A stretch of 64,000 nucleotides of DNA, taken from the NCBI RefSeq assembly GCF_003334355.1, contig NZ_QOWP01000002.1. One strand, written 5' to 3'. A program made the position numbers and the translations under genes. The stretch is from Escherichia coli. Lineage in GTDB: Bacteria > Pseudomonadota > Gammaproteobacteria > Enterobacterales > Enterobacteriaceae. Below, piece by piece: positions 1,387-22,501 of this stretch (positions are counted from its first letter, which is position 1; each line of letters starts with the position of its first letter). The notes under the pieces are model-generated. The model made no database searches, was not told the DNA's origin, and worked only from the letters and a program-made list of their open reading frames with translations.

Positions 1387-3261
1387 CTACTGCCGGGTAG
1401 CTTCGTTAACTAAGAGCGGGCGCACGGCAGTAGCCGCCTGATTTAGCGCTCTTTCATAAGCTGGCGTTCCAGCTTTAGTGTTTGCCAGACGTAAGAGCGC
1501 ATTCCTTGCTGCTTTGGATTCATACAAGCGCATCATTGCACCGAAACCAGCCTCAAGCCCCATTGATACGCCAAGAGTCGTAGTTGCGCCAATCGTCCTT
1601 ATCCTGTTGGCTTGCGATTGCCCCGTCTGAGTTACTACATTTGCGGTGTCTGATCTTGCTGTTTGCTGTAGAACTTCATGAAGAGCATCAAGTTCTTTCA
1701 TGTGCTTTCCAGAAAAAATAGCGTTGTAAATTTCACCGCCTGACTGAGATTTCAGCTTATTAACTTCCGTGATGAACTTGGCTGGAGAGTCACCGGCCTT
1801 TTCCGCTATTTTGCTGACGTAAGCTGCACGCATAGCATCTTTCCCTTTATCATCCAATGCGCTCCAGATTCGTTTCACGTCAGATGGTTTTCTGCTTAAT
1901 ACAACAGTATTTATAAGTTCAGGACTGGCTTCACTGCTTGCCTTGTTGAGCTTGTTAGCAATGTTTTTATTAAGCACCTTATTATAAACGTTTGCATAAT
2001 CGGAATTTGCTTTAAGGTATTTTGCTGCGTCTGAAGCACCGAGGTTTTTAGCAACTGCGTTACGAAGGTCTTTTGACATTGCATTCTCTACCATATTGGT
2101 AGCTGCTTTTGCCTGGTTGGGGAAGACCATGGCATCTCCCTGAACATTAGATCTAAATGCTGTTCTGTGCTGGCGCAAGAGATCAAACGTAACATCCAAA
2201 TCAGTTGCAGGGTTTGCTAATTCTTCACGTAGGTTACGCAAGGATGTAAGCAGGCTTTGATTGGCAGAAGTCCCAAGCCGTTCCTGTCTTGCGATCGCTG
2301 TATTCAGAGCATTCATGGTATTTGTGGTATCAACTGCGGCATTACCCATTTTATTGGTGACGTCATTGATAACAGCGCCAGCGGCATCCTTCCGTCCCCT
2401 TAACGTGGTGGTCAGAGATTTCACCACATCATCAGGGTTGTACTCACCAAAACGGTCAAAATAATTGCTTACCAGCTTACTACGCGTTGCATATTGCTCC
2501 GCTCGCTTTGAGCCTGTCCCGAGCAAAGCCCCCTCAGCATCCTGAGTAAGTCCGCGAGTGAAAGCATTTTTCGGCGGGATAACATCAGATGTCATTGGTG
2601 TCACGCCCATCGATTCTGATGTGGCAATTTTCTTTGCCACTTCTGGCGCAATATCACCTTTTATAGCCGTTATTCCACGCCCTATTCCCTTTGCTGCTGC
2701 GGAAAGAACCCCCTGAGCGGCAAGGTTAACTCCGGCATTTTTAGTTGCATTTTGTGCGAAATCGCCTTTCTGATTTGCGGCCTCTGCCAGTGATCCAATA
2801 GCCATGCTTCCTGCCGTTCCAACTCCTGGAACTAAATACCCGCCAATTGTTTCACCAGCTTGAGCGTAGGGGTCTGTCGGTCGATCGACTGGACGATAAA
2901 CATCATCCAAAACCTTGGGGCCACCAAGCCCCTGGCTGATTGCATTAATCAGGCTTGCGCCGCCCTGTAATACGTCGAATGGTATGTTTACCAGACCACG
3001 ACCAGCCTGCTCTGCAATTTGCCCTGCACTTTGACCACCTGTGAGCCAATCACCAGCTTGTTGCATCAATGATGGTTCTTCTTTCTGCTGCTGAGGCGGA
3101 GGGTATGCTGCATAAAACTGATCTCTTGCTTCAGCCCATTTGTCACCAGCCTTAGGGGCAACAACCTCATCAAAATATTGCGCTTGAGCCTGTGCTTTCT
3201 GTTCTTCAGTTAACGCCTGATACTGTGGAGAGGCGATAACATCTTTCCATGCTTTAGCCAT
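1387..3261 (-). CDS. ejection/internal virion protein, P22 gp16-like
   Basis: 624 aa, Ala/Gly/Gln-rich, last gene of late operon; size and position match P22 gp16 (609 aa). Confidence 0.7.
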
Positions 3262-4655
3262 TAATCACCCCATAGTGAAGAAAAGTTACTGCTGGCTGCT
3301 GGCTGTGATACCTGTGTAGGTTGAGATTGCTGCCGCTGAGATTTACCAACATTAACGTTATATTGTTGGTTGTAATTGTCGGTATATTGCTGAATGTCGC
3401 GCATTGATTGTTGCAGTGCTTCAGGGCTTGAGAAATCAACCTGTGGCATACCTTGAAAATACATCTTTGCTTCTGCAACGGTGTTGATACCGGATGCCCC
3501 CATGTCTCTGGCTGCTGCAATGCCCTGATTCTGCATCTTTCCTTGGATTCGCTGTGCAGCGTTGTATAGTTTCCTCTGATCACCACCAGATGCACGGCTA
3601 CGAATATCTGCACCAAGAGCAGGAGAACCTGAAGAGCCTGTAATGCCAGTCATGAAGCCAAGATCGTCAATTGATGCACCAGAAATTGCATCAAGATCTT
3701 TCTTCATTGCGTAATTCTGCGCGCTTGCTGCCGATGTAGCCGGAGCGGCAATAGAGCCAGCAGGGACGCGAACCATATTCCCCTCGTTGTCGATACCTTC
3801 GTAGAACGCATTAGCCCCAGCGCCGTGAAGCTTCCCGCCTACCGTTACAGTTCTGCCATCTGATAACTGAACTGTACGCTCATCATTCCCAGCGATTCCT
3901 CTTATTGACGCTCGCTTCATTGCCAAATCCTGACCTCGTCGCGCAGTAGAAGCAGATAAGTCCTGACCGCGCATCGTGATGTTCTGGCCTCGTGCTGTTA
4001 GTGCTTCTCCTGCCTGATTGCTGCGGATTGTCTCTGCCAGTCTTCCTCGGTCAATCTCACGACCAGCCATCTTGTCCTGAACATTGAAGTAATCAATTGG
4101 ACCAAGAGCAGCCATTCCAAGGTGATCAACAAACTCACCAAATCCTGAAGGGTTCTGCTGATACATCTGAGCAACGTTATTAGGGTCAACACCGACGCGA
4201 GTCAGTTCCTTGGCGTTGTTTTGCAGCCATGATTGCATTGCTTCTGGAGACGAGGCCGCAAGGCGTGCGCCAGCCGCTAAGGTGCCGATAGAATTGCGCT
4301 GGTCTTCGTCTGCCCACTTCATACCAGACTGAATCTTCTCTAATTGACCAGGATATTTGGCCATCAGATCTCGAACCTGCTGTCGATCACCTGATTGAAT
4401 AGCAGAAGCATAATCCTTTCTGAATGCCGCCTCTTGCTTCTGCTGATCATATTGCTGCAATCCTTGCATTGTGCTTGTTATTCCCTGCAGAGCCTGCAGA
4501 CCGATATTGTTGCGACCAAGCCTGGCATCCTCATTATTCTGACGAATGTAAGCCAGTGTCTCATTTACATCACTCGCCTTTGGCGCATTCTCATTTTGCG
4601 CACCAATTCCAGCCAGAAAACCACCGGAGTTGATGCTCTGTTGCCAAGTTGCCAC
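3261..4655 (-). CDS. ejection protein, P22 gp20-like
   Basis: 464 aa; synteny and size match P22 gp20 (471 aa). Confidence 0.7.
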
Positions 4656-5784: not shown

Positions 5785-6485
5785 TAGTTGATTAATCCAT
5801 GTGTTCGTAAGGCGTCTTCCAGTGCTTTGATGCGCTGCCGCGCCTGCTGTAAACCTGTAGCCATAGCGGAAACTTCAGACTGCGTATACGTGGTACTGAC
5901 CGTGTATGCCTGGTTAGCGTTGAATGCGCCGAGAAGTGCCGTTCCGGTTGCTGCTGTCCATCCTGTCTGACGAGCACCGATAACCTTGGTGCCGCCGACT
6001 GAATAGGATGTTGTTACGTTGAGGGGGGATGCCAGCGATTGTGTTGCTGTGGCTGTTTTCGATACGTAATCGTCCTGCAATGCAGAAATATTTCCTTCAG
6101 CCTCCGTCACTCTACCATCGAGAGCACTGACATCAGCCTGCAAGGTGACTATTTCACCTTCAGCCGTGGTTAGTCTGACATCCAGCGACGCGATTGCATT
6201 GGTATTTGCAGTAATACGGATTTCATGGTCGTCTACGTCGATGCGGAGCTGACGAATTCTTTCTTCGTGATCGACCAGAATCACATCCTGCTCATCGTTC
6301 CTGACCTGTGCATGATAAGCGCCCTGTCCGGCCTCGTTGGCCTTGTTAGCCACGTTACCAACATCAGCGCCCTGTGCGATAACGTACAGCAGATATGACT
6401 GCGAGAAGATATTGCGTGGAAGGATTGATGTATCGAGCCGTGTAGCTTGGATGATTACCGGCACATTGAGATTCGAATCAGCCAT
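5784..6485 (-). CDS. tail needle protein, P22 gp26 homolog
   Basis: N-terminus [25 protein letters not shown]… and C-terminus …RTHGLIN closely match P22 gp26; coiled-coil heptads. Confidence 0.85.
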
Positions 6486-7023
6486 TAACATGCCTCCACG
6501 ATTTACCAGACTGGATATTGTGAATCACCGTCTGACTGACACAGTATTTTTTAGCAAGCTCTCTTTGATTAACTCCCTTTGATTTCTTTATTTCTATTAC
6601 TTGCTCATATGAGAGCTTTGAAATTGGATTATTTTCTCCTTTTAAAGCCGGAAACTTCACCCTGCCTTGAGATGAGCAATGCTTCATATTCTCCTTTTGA
6701 GTACACCACTCTAAATTAGAAGCATTATTATTTTTTCGGTTGTTATCTATGTGATTTATGAACGGCTTGCCTTCTGGATTGGGGACGAAAGCAAGAGCGA
6801 CAAGCCTATGCACAAGCCATTTTACTTTAACTCCATCAACACTAAGTGGCAAATATAGATAACCTTTATTATTCTCGTGTTGTTTTAGCCACCGACCCTT
6901 TCTGAGTTGCGTGCTGCCATGCGCAGCCTTAACAACACGTGAGTGAGAATATACTCGCCCATCCTCTGTTACGGCATATAAACCTTCATATCCAGGAATA
7001 TCTTTTGCGTTTTCACTCAACAT
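6478..7023 (-). CDS. free-standing HNH homing endonuclease (NUMOD4 + HNH_3 + C-terminal HTH)
   Basis: [17 protein letters not shown] (NUMOD4), HRLVALAF…[17 protein letters not shown] (HNH); AT-rich; inserted between gp10 and gp26 genes, 8-bp overlap with gp26 start. Confidence 0.8.
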
Positions 7024-19377: not shown

Positions 19378-19562
19378 CGTCTTCCCCTCTTGCCCTGTTT
19401 GACCATCAGGACGCCGTTAACTATTGCGTGACGCTCGCCTTTGCTGTCTCTGTTGTACTTGAGCACTGTTCCTCTTGCGCAGGAAAGCATCCTCGCCACT
19501 TCGGTCTGATTGCCTCGTGTCTGGATAAGAAGCTCTGGTATCGTTTGAATTGTGGCGTTCAT
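19374..19562 (-). CDS. ninH: NinH
   Basis: 62 aa …GNQTEVARMLSCARGTVLKY…HAIVNGVLMV similar to lambda NinH. Confidence 0.8.
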   Translation of the reverse strand: MNATIQTIPELLIQTRGNQTEVARMLSCARGTVLKYNRDSKGERHAIVNGVLMVKQGKRGRR

Positions 19563-19921
19563 ACGTTCTCCAGTTCGGTGATTTTTATTCCAAGCCCTCC
19601 GCCTGGTACTTTCACACCACGAATTACGCGAATGTCATCGAATTGCTCGTCGTCTTCCGCAAATCCGGCGTGGATAAGGGAGTCGAGTAAACCCTTCAGG
19701 ATGTTATCGAGGTCGCGGCGGCGGGAGTCTGGAACGTCTGCGATGACTTTGATGCGGAGTCTTGATTTGGTGAAAATGTCTAACTTGAGTTGGCGGATGA
19801 TTTGCTGAACGTCTTTTCGGTATTTCTGGCCTTTATCGCTGATGTAGTATTGGCTTCCCCGTCTTCGCCAGTAGGTATTCACCGACGGCGGGTAAGGAAG
19901 CACAAACTGATATTCGTTCAT
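19559..19921 (-). CDS. rusA: RusA-family Holliday junction resolvase
   Basis: 120 aa with LPYPPSVNTYW and DSRRRDLDN motifs. Confidence 0.85.
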   Translation of the reverse strand: MNEYQFVLPYPPSVNTYWRRRGSQYYISDKGQKYRKDVQQIIRQLKLDIFTKSRLRIKVIADVPDSRRRDLDNILKGLLDSLIHAGFAEDDEQFDDIRVIRGVKVPGGGLGIKITELENV

Positions 19922-20208
19922 GGCTTAATCTTCCCCTCCTTCAGCAGTATCGTCTGCGTCCTGATCACACCTTCGAGGTGGTAAAGTCTGGCGTCTTTGT
20001 TGTCGAGATTATGGGTGCGTCGGTCGATTTCATCGTGACACGCGCTACAAGCCCATGCGCCGATCAGGTCTTCAGGCTTCATTCCAGTTCCGCAAATTCC
20101 AGCCATCCGGTAATGTGCCAGAACTGTAGTTTCAGGATTACCATTGCATACGCCGTAAATACGTACCTGGCATTCTCTGCCGCGTGCTTCTTTGCGTAGG
20201 TTAGCCAT
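19918..20208 (-). CDS. YbcO-like DUF1364 protein (nin region)
   Basis: 96 aa RGRECQVRIYGVCNGNPETTVLAH…CSACHDEIDRRTH resembles DLP12 YbcO. Confidence 0.7.
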   Translation of the reverse strand: MANLRKEARGRECQVRIYGVCNGNPETTVLAHYRMAGICGTGMKPEDLIGAWACSACHDEIDRRTHNLDNKDARLYHLEGVIRTQTILLKEGKIKP

Positions 20209-20933
20209 TAAGCAGCCTCCCCTGTTACTTTCAGCATTCCGTTATCGAGCAGCTTTCTGGTCAGCCACTGTTGACCACGCCCGGTGATTTTTGTGGTGAA
20301 CGATATCTGTATTCCGTGATTTGTATTGACCGCTGTTTCTTTCACTGTGAAATAGCCGCGATCCATATATTCCTGCATTGGCACATTGCGCCGGGAACCT
20401 GAAGCAATAAGGATTTTGTGATCACGCATCCACGCAAACAGTTTGTTTGGACCAATACCGACAACCTTTGCAAAGTTTCCAATCAAAATTCCGCTGGCCT
20501 CGCCAACGCGATCGGCAAACTCAACTTTAGGTGCGGCAATTGCGAGCTGGTTTTCCAGCTGCATTTTCTGCTCAGCAAGATCAGCAGCAAGGCGCAACGC
20601 TTCCGGTAGCGTTTTGGGGATATTAACCGCAGCTTCTTCAAGCTCTCGCCAGCGGTCAACAAGACGAGCGGTGAATTCCGGCGACAACTGAGCGACGACA
20701 ATAATGCTGTCTCGCTTACCTTGTTCGCCTTCGAAGACGTAGAAATCACGCTTCCCGGTAATAACACCTAAATCATTGATTATGTTAGTGTGCTGCAATG
20801 CAGGAGGCTTGATAACGCCACGTTTCACCAATCTATCTATGGATACTTTTACATTGCTATGGCGGCTTTCTACCAGTTCGGCAATTTCGATACTGGTCAT
20901 CTTAACGGAAGAGAAACAAATTAAATTACTCAT
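20208..20933 (-). CDS. Rha-family regulatory protein with KilAC/ANT C-terminal domain (antirepressor-like)
   Basis: N-terminal MTSIEIAELVESRHSNV (Rha) and C-terminal GPNKLFAWMRDHKIL…GYF (KilAC-like). Confidence 0.75.
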   Translation of the reverse strand: MSNLICFSSVKMTSIEIAELVESRHSNVKVSIDRLVKRGVIKPPALQHTNIINDLGVITGKRDFYVFEGEQGKRDSIIVVAQLSPEFTARLVDRWRELEEAAVNIPKTLPEALRLAADLAEQKMQLENQLAIAAPKVEFADRVGEASGILIGNFAKVVGIGPNKLFAWMRDHKILIASGSRRNVPMQEYMDRGYFTVKETAVNTNHGIQISFTTKITGRGQQWLTRKLLDNGMLKVTGEAA

Positions 20934-20964
20934 TGCTATTCTCCGGTTTGCAAATTGTATTCAC

Positions 20965-21432
20965 TTAAACGCGAATGCGCACAAACTTACAACCTAACGC
21001 CGATTTTATCTCTTCCTCGCGAATGCGATCCGCGTCCATATGCTGAGGCGCAAAATGTTGTTCCTCGTCTATTTCATAGGCGATATTGTTTACAGGATCA
21101 TAGCCATCTATGCGGTATTTATCTAAAACCGGATATTGCCTTATTAATTTAACTCCTTGTAATTGTTCGATGGTGGTTAATGCTATTGTCTCAGAACATC
21201 TATTTAATGCTATTCTCTGATGCTTAAACACGTTAGCAACATCAGCATCAACAACAAAAACCTCTCGCTTAACTTTGAATCCTAGATTATTTTCATAATA
21301 TTCATATTTAATATCGTGCTTTATCCCGTTTTTTATTATGGTACGTTTCACATTGTCATGACGCTTACCCACCAACTCAGCGATTTCAATGCTTGTCATT
21401 TTGATGGCATTGCCATTTATTAACTCATTCAT
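20965..21432 (-). CDS. Rha-like N-terminal domain fused to DUF559/Vsr-like endonuclease-fold C-terminal domain
   Basis: N-terminus MTSIEIAELVGKRHDNV duplicates neighbouring Rha start; C-terminus YRIDGYD…IAYEIDEEQH…DADRIREEEIKSALGCKFVRI fits DUF559 pattern; 3' half AT-rich. Confidence 0.55.
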   Translation of the reverse strand: MNELINGNAIKMTSIEIAELVGKRHDNVKRTIIKNGIKHDIKYEYYENNLGFKVKREVFVVDADVANVFKHQRIALNRCSETIALTTIEQLQGVKLIRQYPVLDKYRIDGYDPVNNIAYEIDEEQHFAPQHMDADRIREEEIKSALGCKFVRIRV

Positions 21433-21595
21433 CGTCTTCTTCCTCGTACATTGAGCTATTCGGATCGCTCATCAGTTCTGCACAGCAGTGCTCACACACG
21501 TGAACTTCCAGCACATGCAGCTTTTGACCGCAATTAGCGCACGTTAAAGCCCGCTCGACGCTTTCTTGTTCGTAACTTCGATTTGGGTCAATCAC
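21425..21595 (-). CDS. ninF: NinF
   Basis: GTG-initiated 56 aa …[40 protein letters not shown]… matching lambda NinF; below ORF-track size cutoff. Confidence 0.75.
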
Positions 21596-21774: not shown

Positions 21775-21914
21775 ACGTCCTCCTTTCCCTGCGGTAGTGG
21801 TAAAACTCCTGTTGGTGTTCTTTCACACCGGAGACACCATCGATTCCAGTAAGGCTGTCCTGGTCGAAAGCGATCGTCTTCCTTTCGCTCTCCACATCGA
21901 TAACAGTGCTTCAT
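21663..21914 (-). CDS. ninD: NinD-like zinc-ribbon protein (3' end overlaps ninE in another frame)
   Basis: [31 protein letters not shown]; true stop uncertain because the frame stays open over ninE. Confidence 0.5.
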
Positions 21915-22501
21915 GCGATCACCATTTTGCATGGTTTAATCGCCATTCCGGGAGCCAGTTCAAAATCGGAGTTGCACTGATTGCCCCACATATCCCACCC
22001 GGTCACTTTGTCGCGGCTAAATAACTCACAGCGCGGCACGTCGCCAAGCAACTTAGCTAACATGTCTCTTACGATCGGTGGTTTTGCACTGTGCTCCATT
22101 CTCGGTGCGGTAAAGTGCTGGCATATTGAAGCGTCCATTCTCTCAGGCAACCGCCCTCGAACAGCAAACAAGCAATCCTCGCTATTTGCCCTGGTCATAT
22201 GCCCCATTCCGATCGCACTGTTGCCTTTGTGCTTATTGGTTTTGTGCCAGGTAAAGCCTTTCATAGTCATCAACCTGAATCCCCACGCCTCAACTACCTT
22301 TAGCGCTTCGGCTGGCTGTGTCGGCACCCACCACATCGCTAACAAGCAAGATTCTGGATCCGCTAAATCCCATACTGGCAGTCGGCAAATGTCCTGAACA
22401 TTCATAACATCGTATTTATGTCCAGCACCGCGATTGCCATCGTTGGCTTTGTCGCGATATTGCCAAGGCGGATCTGCGTAAATAAGTCGGTATTTGTTCA
22501 T
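21911..22501 (-). CDS. MT-A70 family DNA N6-adenine methyltransferase
   Basis: 196 aa with IYADPPWQY motif; nin-region position. Confidence 0.85.

Follow-up and report, generated by a model that had tools for sequence, protein, structure and literature searches.

A Rha-type DNA-binding head joined to a Vsr/DUF559-like nuclease domain in a lambdoid nin region of Escherichia coli: a probable homing-endonuclease-like selfish gene

Introduction

The closest described counterparts of the gene studied here, an open reading frame (ORF) on the minus strand at positions 20965-21432 of a 64,000-nucleotide stretch of Escherichia coli DNA (assembly GCF_003334355.1, contig NZ_QOWP01000002.1; hereafter the window), are nucleases that combine a DNA-binding part with a cleavage part. 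In the EDxHD family of Vsr-like homing endonucleases, to which free-standing enzymes and the Hef type from T4-like phages belong, I-Bth0305I consists of an N-terminal NUMOD/helix-turn-helix (HTH) region followed by a C-terminal Vsr-like domain (PMC3239194). Vsr, DUF559 and I-Bth0305I have been grouped in one PD-(D/E)xK clade (Steczkiewicz et al. 2012; PMC3424549). In the modification-dependent restriction enzyme AbaSI, the D61A, E75A and H78A substitutions abolish activity, E26 and Q47 form a conserved pair, and K23 is essential (PMC4081097). Finally, phage nuclease genes sit at recombination boundaries, and Odn of phage ICP1 is a homing-endonuclease-derived nuclease with a RepA_N head copied from its satellite target (PMC10448857).

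The ORF in the window, which we call the Rha-nuclease ORF, encodes a Rha-type DNA-binding head followed by a Vsr/DUF559-like nuclease domain, and we consider that it is probably a free-standing, Vsr-like selfish nuclease of the homing-endonuclease kind. Like the enzymes of the I-Bth0305I/Hef group, some of which are free-standing, it is phage-borne and has its DNA-binding region at the N-terminus and its Vsr-like domain at the C-terminus, and as with EDxHD genes it is patchily distributed among otherwise collinear genomes, with precise empty alleles. Unlike I-Bth0305I, its head is of the Rha/Bro-N/AntA/KilA-N type rather than made of NUMOD/HTH repeats, and the protein is much smaller (155 aa), lies outside any intron or intein, and has an activity that is only predicted. 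The Seg (GIY-YIG) and Mob (HNH) genes of T4-like phages and the T5orf172 genes of ICP1 and T5-like phages (PMC10448857) are likewise small genes with a DNA-binding end and a nuclease end, placed between or into conserved genes, patchy among close relatives and sharing their slots with other endonuclease genes; copies of the Rha-nuclease also swap domains, and the gene sits at a boundary of genetic exchange. The fold, however, is Vsr-like PD-(D/E)xK and not GIY-YIG or HNH, and the heads are drawn from the pool of antirepressor domains.

Odn offers another parallel, since in both cases a homing-endonuclease-type nuclease domain carries a head homologous to that on another element's protein, with variation in the heads tracking that of their counterparts. 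The two differ in that Odn pairs RepA_N with T5orf172 and has a satellite-origin target that, according to PMC10448857 and eLife 2021;10:e68339 as cited there, is known and tested, whereas the head matching the Rha-nuclease belongs to the phage's own neighbouring gene and no target is known. With the Rha/KilAC and Bro-N/ANT antirepressors (20208-20933 in the window; mEp554_12 in a coliphage) the ORF shares the N-terminal head, its first 32 codons being identical to one allele, but the KilAC or ANT C-terminal domain is replaced by a nuclease. Compared with PvuRts1I and AbaSI, the Vsr-like cleavage domain is present and the SRA-like domain that binds modified cytosine is absent. Against DUF559, NGO0050-type small endonuclease-like proteins (PDB 3hrl) and REase_MTES_1575, the protein alone scores just E~0.007; typical DUF559 proteins have different DNA-binding heads or none and their function is unknown, so that filing the Rha-nuclease among them explains nothing of its role. 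We found no description of Rha, Bro-N or KilA-N fused to Vsr or DUF559 in the searchable literature. The original prediction, made from the sequence alone, had known of no characterised case of the arrangement, and to this extent it held, the general EDxHD kind being already known (PMC3239194).

Results

Integrity and conservation of the Rha-nuclease ORF

The ORF starts with ATG and is intact over 155 codons. In RefSeq, the PGAP annotation covers only the first 96 bp, as a pseudogene labelled 'Rha family transcriptional regulator, incomplete', and leaves the remaining 372 bp blank; the same 96-bp pseudogene was present in all four genomes inspected, out of the five complete genomes that carry the ORF. 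We recovered 516 homologues at E<=0.001, many of them full length and 40-76% identical, from E. coli, Salmonella, Vibrio phages and Chromatium. Pairwise dN/dS against homologues was 0.12-0.31 for the whole ORF and 0.17-0.25 for the nuclease domain, and in distant pairs the synonymous sites were saturated while protein identity was still high. The view implied by RefSeq, that this is a decayed Rha remnant or else a functionless chance ORF, would fit the pseudogene calls, but it conflicts with the full reading frame, with a two-domain architecture common to hundreds of homologues, with dN/dS of about 0.2, and with the invariant catalytic residues and confident fold prediction described below. 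We therefore reject decay and regard this explanation as scarcely credible. Judged by its conservation, the Rha-nuclease ORF is a real gene under purifying selection.

Domain architecture and predicted active site

The protein divides into the following parts.

20965-21432, minus strand: Rha-nuclease ORF, Rha-type head plus linker plus Vsr/DUF559-like nuclease; stop codon TAA at 20965-20967 (ORF list, homologues, dN/dS)
21247-21402, minus strand: residues 11-62, Rha-type winged-helix DNA-binding head, strand-helix-helix-hairpin (Pfam; AlphaFold2 (AF2), predicted local distance difference test (pLDDT) >90)
21157-21240, minus strand: residues 65-92, helical linker, with AF2 helices at 65-70 and 72-92 (AF2, invariant columns)
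20968-21156, minus strand: residues 93-155, nuclease core, beta-beta-beta-alpha-beta (AF2 places the core strands and helix at 97-154)
21106-21108, minus strand: predicted catalytic codon D109
21055-21075, minus strand: stretch containing the predicted catalytic codons E120, D122, E123 and H126

Profile matches to the head were short: Pfam Phage_pRha aligned with residues 12-35 (E=8e-5; model positions 1-24 of 91), and TIGR02681 (Rha) scored 19 bits in the NCBIfam scan, below its cut-off of 45.95; in the AF2 model, this part nevertheless folds as a small but complete winged helix. PHROG antirepressor families matched residues 1-73 only, the C-terminus carrying the nuclease in place of a KilAC or ANT domain. 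For the C-terminal half, the single sequence gave weak matches to Pfam REase_MTES_1575 (residues 92-154, E=0.006) and DUF559 (PF04480; residues 89-139, E=0.007, 16.6 bits), the latter reaching E=0.001 when the domain was searched in isolation, and DUF559 was matched at E<=0.001 by 15/20 and 67/141 homologues in two member sets. The PADLOC model mREase_II matched residues 106-155 at E=9e-9, over model positions 53-102 of 294, which correspond to the nuclease core alone. The conserved nuclease module begins at the end of the linker, from about residue 80 on (...ALTTIEQL), where E81, E89 and Q90 are invariant.

Searches of PDB sequences with the protein, with a full-length profile (A1) and with a nuclease profile (A4) returned nothing significant, a sub-threshold alignment with AbaSI alone being informative, and for this reason a fold comparison was needed. 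The AF2 model, computed with 75 full-length homologues as input, had a mean pLDDT of 88 and contained an alpha-beta-beta-beta-alpha-beta restriction-endonuclease-like core, which was likened to TnsA, Hjc and AbaSI. No solved nuclease domain is closer in sequence than that of AbaSI (29% identity over 66 residues), and the motifs D..(10)..ExDE..H and D..R..I....G.k..R line up between the two proteins. Foldseek against viral models matched DUF559 proteins of phages, Bro-N proteins from large viruses of eukaryotes, and proteins annotated as 'homing endonuclease' or 'group I intron protein'. Thus, the fusion of a Rha head to a DUF559/Vsr-like domain that had been proposed from the sequence, with C-terminal motifs that are indeed present in the ORF, is borne out by weak but consistent Pfam and PADLOC matches, by DUF559 assignments among the relatives and by a predicted Vsr-like fold, in a gene that is no pseudogene and whose architecture recurs widely (516 homologues; 1129 cluster representatives, see below).

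As a separate observation, the whole two-domain model also aligned with Bro-N proteins of giant viruses, with an entomopoxvirus 'ALI motif' protein and with iridovirus and ascovirus proteins, at 15-20% identity over 165-230 columns. On the strength of these model comparisons, fusions of a Bro-N head to a Vsr-like nuclease may exist in large DNA viruses of eukaryotes as well.

Thirteen residues (E81, E89, Q90, Q99, D109, N116, E120, D122, E123, H126, R138, C148 and R152) were invariant in 75/75 homologues, and D135 was conserved in 74/75. The sub-threshold hidden Markov model (HMM) alignment pairs 'DGYDPVNNIAYEIDEEQHF' of the ORF with 'DLYFPQLGIHIEVDEGHHF' of AbaSI, and together with the residues identified in PMC4081097 it matches AbaSI D61, E75, H78, E26 and Q47 to D109, E123, H126, E89 and Q99, respectively. 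The model shows the pattern of a catalytic Asp on the second strand, acidic residues on or after the third strand and a His in the following loop, as in Vsr (D51/H69) and AbaSI (D61/H78). The candidates for Vsr E25, D51, H69 and D97 are E89, D109, H126 and D135, in the right order, and with D122 they reproduce the E...D...x...H...D order of the EDxHD family; the assignments of E89 and D109 are backed through AbaSI E26 and D61, and D135 is matched to D97 by position only. From this conservation we infer that D109, E120/D122/E123 and H126 are the metal-binding and catalytic residues. Given such an invariant set of acidic residues and His, a purely structural domain is not expected. By sequence, the nuclease family appears nearest to DUF559 and to AbaSI's N-terminal domain.

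Occupied and empty alleles

The ORF lies in a lambdoid nin region that encodes NinB, an MT-A70 methylase, NinD, NinE and NinF, DUF1364, RusA, NinH and Q. Comparison with the empty sites of E. coli ISHS7 and PEC389, in which ninF overlaps the start of a single Rha-head/KilAC gene, defined the following elements.

21425-21595, minus strand: ninF, whose stop overlaps the ATG of the Rha-nuclease ORF (ATGAATGA); the antirepressor gene uses the identical junction at empty sites
21337-21432, minus strand: codons 1-32 of the ORF, left recombination joint; 96 nt 100% identical to the 5' end of the ISHS7 antirepressor gene (blastn break at 21337/21338)
20742-21336, no strand assigned: 595-bp tract that stands in place of 94 bp in the ISHS7-type empty allele (window versus locus L003 by blastn; alignment A2)
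20934-20964, minus strand: 31-nt spacer after the Rha-nuclease stop, with a GGAG ribosome-binding site for the next gene
20742-20933, minus strand: first 64 codons of the antirepressor gene, within the tract that differs from the ISHS7-type empty allele (blastn breakpoints)
20208-20933, minus strand: Rha-head plus KilAC antirepressor gene, 241 aa (PHROG 63 anti-repressor Ant, E=2.5e-91)

The 595-bp tract thus contains the remainder of the Rha head, the linker, the nuclease, the stop codon, the spacer with its GGAG and, fused to the KilAC body, 64 codons from a second Rha head. The window, phage mEp044 and loci L008 and L007 share the conserved spacer, even before an unrelated next gene. Residues 12-28 of the ORF (MTSIEIAELVGKRHDNV) agree with residues 12-28 of the neighbouring antirepressor (MTSIEIAELVESRHSNV) at 14/17 positions, and the original prediction was right that the two genes share a head. 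Since codons 1-32 are identical to the empty-site allele, the shared head is a recombination joint and not a local duplication. A tandem duplication of the antirepressor head was accordingly rejected: the two copies have many synonymous differences, a repeat search found 75% identity over 20 nt, and the first copy corresponds to the empty-site allele. The position between ninF and the Rha gene was also confirmed, but the AT-rich part is the middle of the ORF rather than its 3' half (GC 33-35% at 21075-21375, against ~50% in the flanks and 41-43% in the last ~100 nt of the ORF).

A similar pair of alleles occurs in coliphages of the mEp021 group. Here mEp554_12, a single antirepressor gene of the Bro-N+ANT type, represents the empty allele. 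Its Bro-N 5' end recurs in mEp044 (~55 codons, near identical), where it is followed by mEp044's own Bro-N second half, the linker, the nuclease and the spacer, and then by a new ~105-residue Rha head in frame with the mEp554-type ANT body at 'KPALPDFTDP'. In both the window and mEp044, the left joint falls within homologous heads and the right joint in the antirepressor gene. Judging from these alignments, the cassette separates the head of an antirepressor gene from its body at each of two unrelated genome positions and leaves both products translatable.

A universal linkage to a downstream Rha antirepressor gene was considered and rejected. It holds for the window, mEp044 and L008, and fails in L007, L009 and L011-13 (in which an unrelated 63-aa ORF follows), in the Krischvirus copy described below, in Vibrio phage 1.206.O and in Chromatium. 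Other nuclease copies either follow an antirepressor-type gene immediately downstream or are divergent from one.

The nin genes of lambda are delayed-early genes transcribed from pR. When we looked for a promoter or terminator belonging to the Rha-nuclease ORF, we found a single weak promoter-like site within the ORF, below chance expectation. As the start of the ORF overlaps the ninF stop and no convincing promoter of its own was seen, expression with the nin operon is expected.

Patchy occurrence in three phage lineages

The 1.9 kb surrounding the ORF matched 2216/5426 complete E. coli genomes, of which only five contained the ORF; the unique 403 bp of the ORF recovered exactly these five, at 99.8-100% identity. 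The carriers came from chicken, poultry, dog and human hosts in several countries (those recorded in the annotations inspected: Cuba, South Africa and China), and their prophages have different Q genes, replication genes and nin accessory genes. Identity to the window peaked at the cassette in the five carrier genomes, with flanks at 93-98%:

Cassette (unique part): 99.8-100%
Antirepressor gene: 97-99%
ninF: 93-100%
DUF1364: 93-97%

One carrier, E. coli VTB97022v, has an identical cassette followed by an antirepressor gene truncated to a 237-bp pseudogene (L019:3264-3500) and then by a second, different KilAC antirepressor gene (L019:2479-3249), which indicates a further rearrangement at the cassette site.

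We also surveyed 50,697 phage records by tblastn. Among Krischvirus (T4-like) phages the module was present in 1 of ~64 records, that of pEJ01, between gene 32 and frd; in ~60 close relatives, which lack the module, the alignment over the gene 32-frd interval falls into two pieces. The slot is empty in JSE (121 nt intergenic), holds a 485-aa HNH endonuclease gene in RB49, and holds the 145-aa Rha-nuclease gene in pEJ01. The inserts of pEJ01 and RB49 are bracketed by a duplicated leader and ribosome-binding segment. The pEJ01 homologue had no PHROG match. In T4, segG also adjoins gene 32. A further difference was seen in roughly the first 40 nt of the gene downstream of this slot, which read …AACGACTCAACCGAA… in JSE and …GATGAAAAAGTAAGT… in pEJ01 and RB49 (L005:~3260-3300, L018:~2900-2940, L017:~1400-1440); pEJ01 and RB49 agree here despite their different endonucleases. 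This could be a polymorphism of the target site or of immunity, or else a co-conversion tract.

In the mEp021 group, mEp044 was the sole carrier (1/7); annotated homing endonucleases occur nearby in others. Related loci also have HNH genes and an apparent DnaB intein in the vicinity. In one mEp021-like contig (L011:5901-8351), dnaB encodes 816 aa instead of 471, with ~345 additional residues after the Walker A 'GSGK' that end in '...VTHNT', an insert that looks like an intein with an endonuclease domain. In three metagenomic contigs (L011:2102-3919, L012 and L013), the gene directly upstream of the Rha-nuclease encodes a 605-aa HNH_3 protein, and L008 has a 164-aa HNH_3 gene (6329-6823) before dnaB. 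Selfish nuclease genes appear to form a cluster in the replication region of the L008 and L011-L013 phages.

As far as comparison of genomes can tell, the distribution of the Rha-nuclease is the one expected of free-standing homing endonuclease genes.

A nuclease family with antirepressor-type heads

A profile of the 80-residue nuclease module was searched against 1.84 billion cluster representatives (50% identity clusters). At E<=1e-10 it recovered 1129 representatives; relaxing the threshold to E<=0.001 gave 4458, a set that merges into general DUF559. The module occupies the extreme C-terminus in almost every one of the best 150, after 60-130 (occasionally up to ~330) residues. We then scanned 141 representatives with Pfam and counted the heads, given here as the numbers at E<=0.001 to E<=0.1:

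Phage_pRha (PF09669): 42-50/141
Bro-N: 12-13/141
AntA: 6-7/141
KilA-N: 4-9/141
NUMOD3: 3-5/141
ORF6N: 2/141

Domains of most of these types stand at the N-terminus of phage antirepressor-type proteins, and NUMOD3 is a DNA-binding module of homing endonucleases. In addition, Pfam PvuRts1I-like_N gave weak matches in some homologues. Nuclease modules that are 72-88% identical carry unrelated heads, and in one phage type a single slot holds either an AntA-headed or a differently headed nuclease copy, which indicates that the module is exchanged between heads. Every family member has a head of its own, even where no Rha gene is nearby. In annotations the homologues appear as 'Rha family transcriptional regulator' (in several genomes), as 'hypothetical protein', or as the 96-bp pseudogene with an unannotated nuclease half. 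To judge by its sequences, the family is probably a sizeable set of selfish nucleases with an unusual head repertoire.

Chromatium okenii has at least three distinct Rha-nuclease paralogues (P0081, P0108 and P0116; L026:3001-3492, L027:905-1396), one of them chromosomal beside PIN/MazE and Phd toxin-antitoxin genes and another on a small contig beside a DDE transposase fragment, with no evident phage context.

Discussion

We propose that the Rha-nuclease ORF probably acts as a homing-endonuclease cassette. Its Rha-type winged-helix head would position the protein on DNA, and the minimal C-terminal PD-(D/E)xK domain of the Vsr/DUF559 type would cut. The travelling unit would comprise part of a head, the nuclease, the stop codon, the 31-nt spacer with its ribosome-binding site and a replacement Rha head. 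After insertion, the 5' end of the resident antirepressor gene (codons 1-32) would head the nuclease, and the KilAC body would be translated from the new head and the new ribosome-binding site. Expressed with the nin operon during lytic growth, the nuclease would cut in or near the antirepressor gene of a related, cassette-free phage, and repair from the cassette-bearing genome would copy the cassette, with the shared head providing homology on the left and the antirepressor gene providing it on the right. We can only tentatively go further and suggest that phage antirepressor genes are the specific target of the cassette, which would enter them where head meets body, re-using the resident head and giving the remainder a replacement, a more specific scheme that we hold to be rather doubtful. 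The re-used head could then either aim the nuclease at the sites which that head recognises, as in Odn, or serve as a built-in homology arm, and the scheme would explain why the heads of the family resemble the set of antirepressor heads. If true, a selfish nuclease would change its target specificity by recombining with its own target gene, which would be a new route.

Several observations weigh against the homing proposal. Cleavage, a target site and over-inheritance have not been demonstrated for any member of the family. The link to I-Bth0305I is at the level of fold and clade only, the A1 and A4 profile searches of all PDB sequences having missed that protein (3r3p) even at E<=10. In contrast to AbaSI, which is a bacterial restriction enzyme and not a phage cassette, the position of the essential K23 is occupied by T86, and it is variable across the family (K in 54/75 close homologues and in 29/141 broader representatives). 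Each chain has a single predicted active site, so that a double-strand cut would need dimerisation. The mosaic joints could have arisen by ordinary lambdoid recombination, without a break made by the nuclease, and the frequent adjacency to antirepressor genes (window, mEp044, L008, L010, L014 and L024) could instead mark a functional partnership. Moreover, some homologues are chromosomal without obvious phage context, such as the one in Chromatium okenii that lies beside toxin-antitoxin genes.

Other functions can be imagined for a protein of this build. It could be a competition nuclease that resembles Odn in mimicking a regulator's head and that benefits its own phage by cutting the sites recognised by that regulator in rival phages or satellites. 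Over its HTH part (residues 12-32) the head has exactly the nucleotides of the ISHS7-type antirepressor allele, the antirepressor downstream has a different head allele, and the heads of the family (Rha, Bro-N, AntA, KilA-N and ORF6N) are of the kind that head phage antirepressors at these loci; besides ICP1 Odn itself, there is precedent in coliphage nucleases that mirror the heads of satellite RepA proteins (PMC10448857). Nevertheless, these antirepressor heads have no known DNA site, the Krischvirus copy occupies a classic homing-endonuclease slot without a neighbouring Rha-type regulator, five occurrences in 2216 nin regions is a low frequency for a beneficial weapon, and the identity of codons 1-32 is equally explained by a recombination joint. 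We thus consider this role unlikely, while pointing out that it is compatible with homing.

We give still less credence to a prophage defence or exclusion nuclease of the modification-dependent restriction type (PvuRts1I/AbaSI-like). The anti-phage effector that the original prediction had offered beside a homing or selfish nuclease is backed only by the domain-level PADLOC match, whereas the selfish nuclease fits the distribution data best. The mREase_II and weak PvuRts1I-like_N matches, and AbaSI as the most sequence-similar solved domain, would favour such a function, but the PADLOC match is limited to the core, the rest of the protein is a Rha head rather than an SRA-like domain that binds modified bases, and in a lysogen no expression is expected from a nin-operon gene that lacks a convincing promoter of its own. 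Comparably improbable, in our view, is a variant regulator or antirepressor in which the nuclease-like domain serves only for oligomerisation or partner binding and does not cut. The annotation as a Rha family regulator in several genomes and the antirepressor genes that are often adjacent would suit it; the full active-site set of acidic residues and His, invariant across the family, and a patchy distribution unlike that of a core regulator speak against it.

The family is large and has been invisible or mis-annotated, and recognising its members as putative nucleases changes how lambdoid nin and replication regions are read. If they are active homing endonucleases, they add an architecture in which antirepressor-type heads are set on a Vsr-like nuclease of 75 residues; proteins of 145-165 aa are very small and could interest nuclease engineers. 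The two occupied/empty pairs (window versus ISHS7/PEC389, and mEp044 versus mEp554) would be a natural example of a selfish insertion that shuffles the domains of a phage regulator, and they make the proposed mechanism directly testable by phage crosses.

Other variable genes of the nin region

A second presence/absence polymorphism was noticed in the nin region. A 174-aa HNH endonuclease gene lies between DUF1364 and rusA in E. coli MB46 and XH992 (L001:2298-2822, L021:1964-2488) and is absent from the window, PEC389 and ISHS7. In the window, DUF1364 (19918-20208) and rusA (19559-19921) meet at 19918-19921, a junction that looks like another slot for a free-standing homing endonuclease. Finally, the minus-strand gene at 21911-22501, between ninB and ninD, encodes a 196-aa MT-A70-type methyltransferase with a DPPW motif; the window and ISHS7 have it, PEC389 and MB46 lack it, and elsewhere another N6-adenine methylase gene or a PAPS reductase gene is found.

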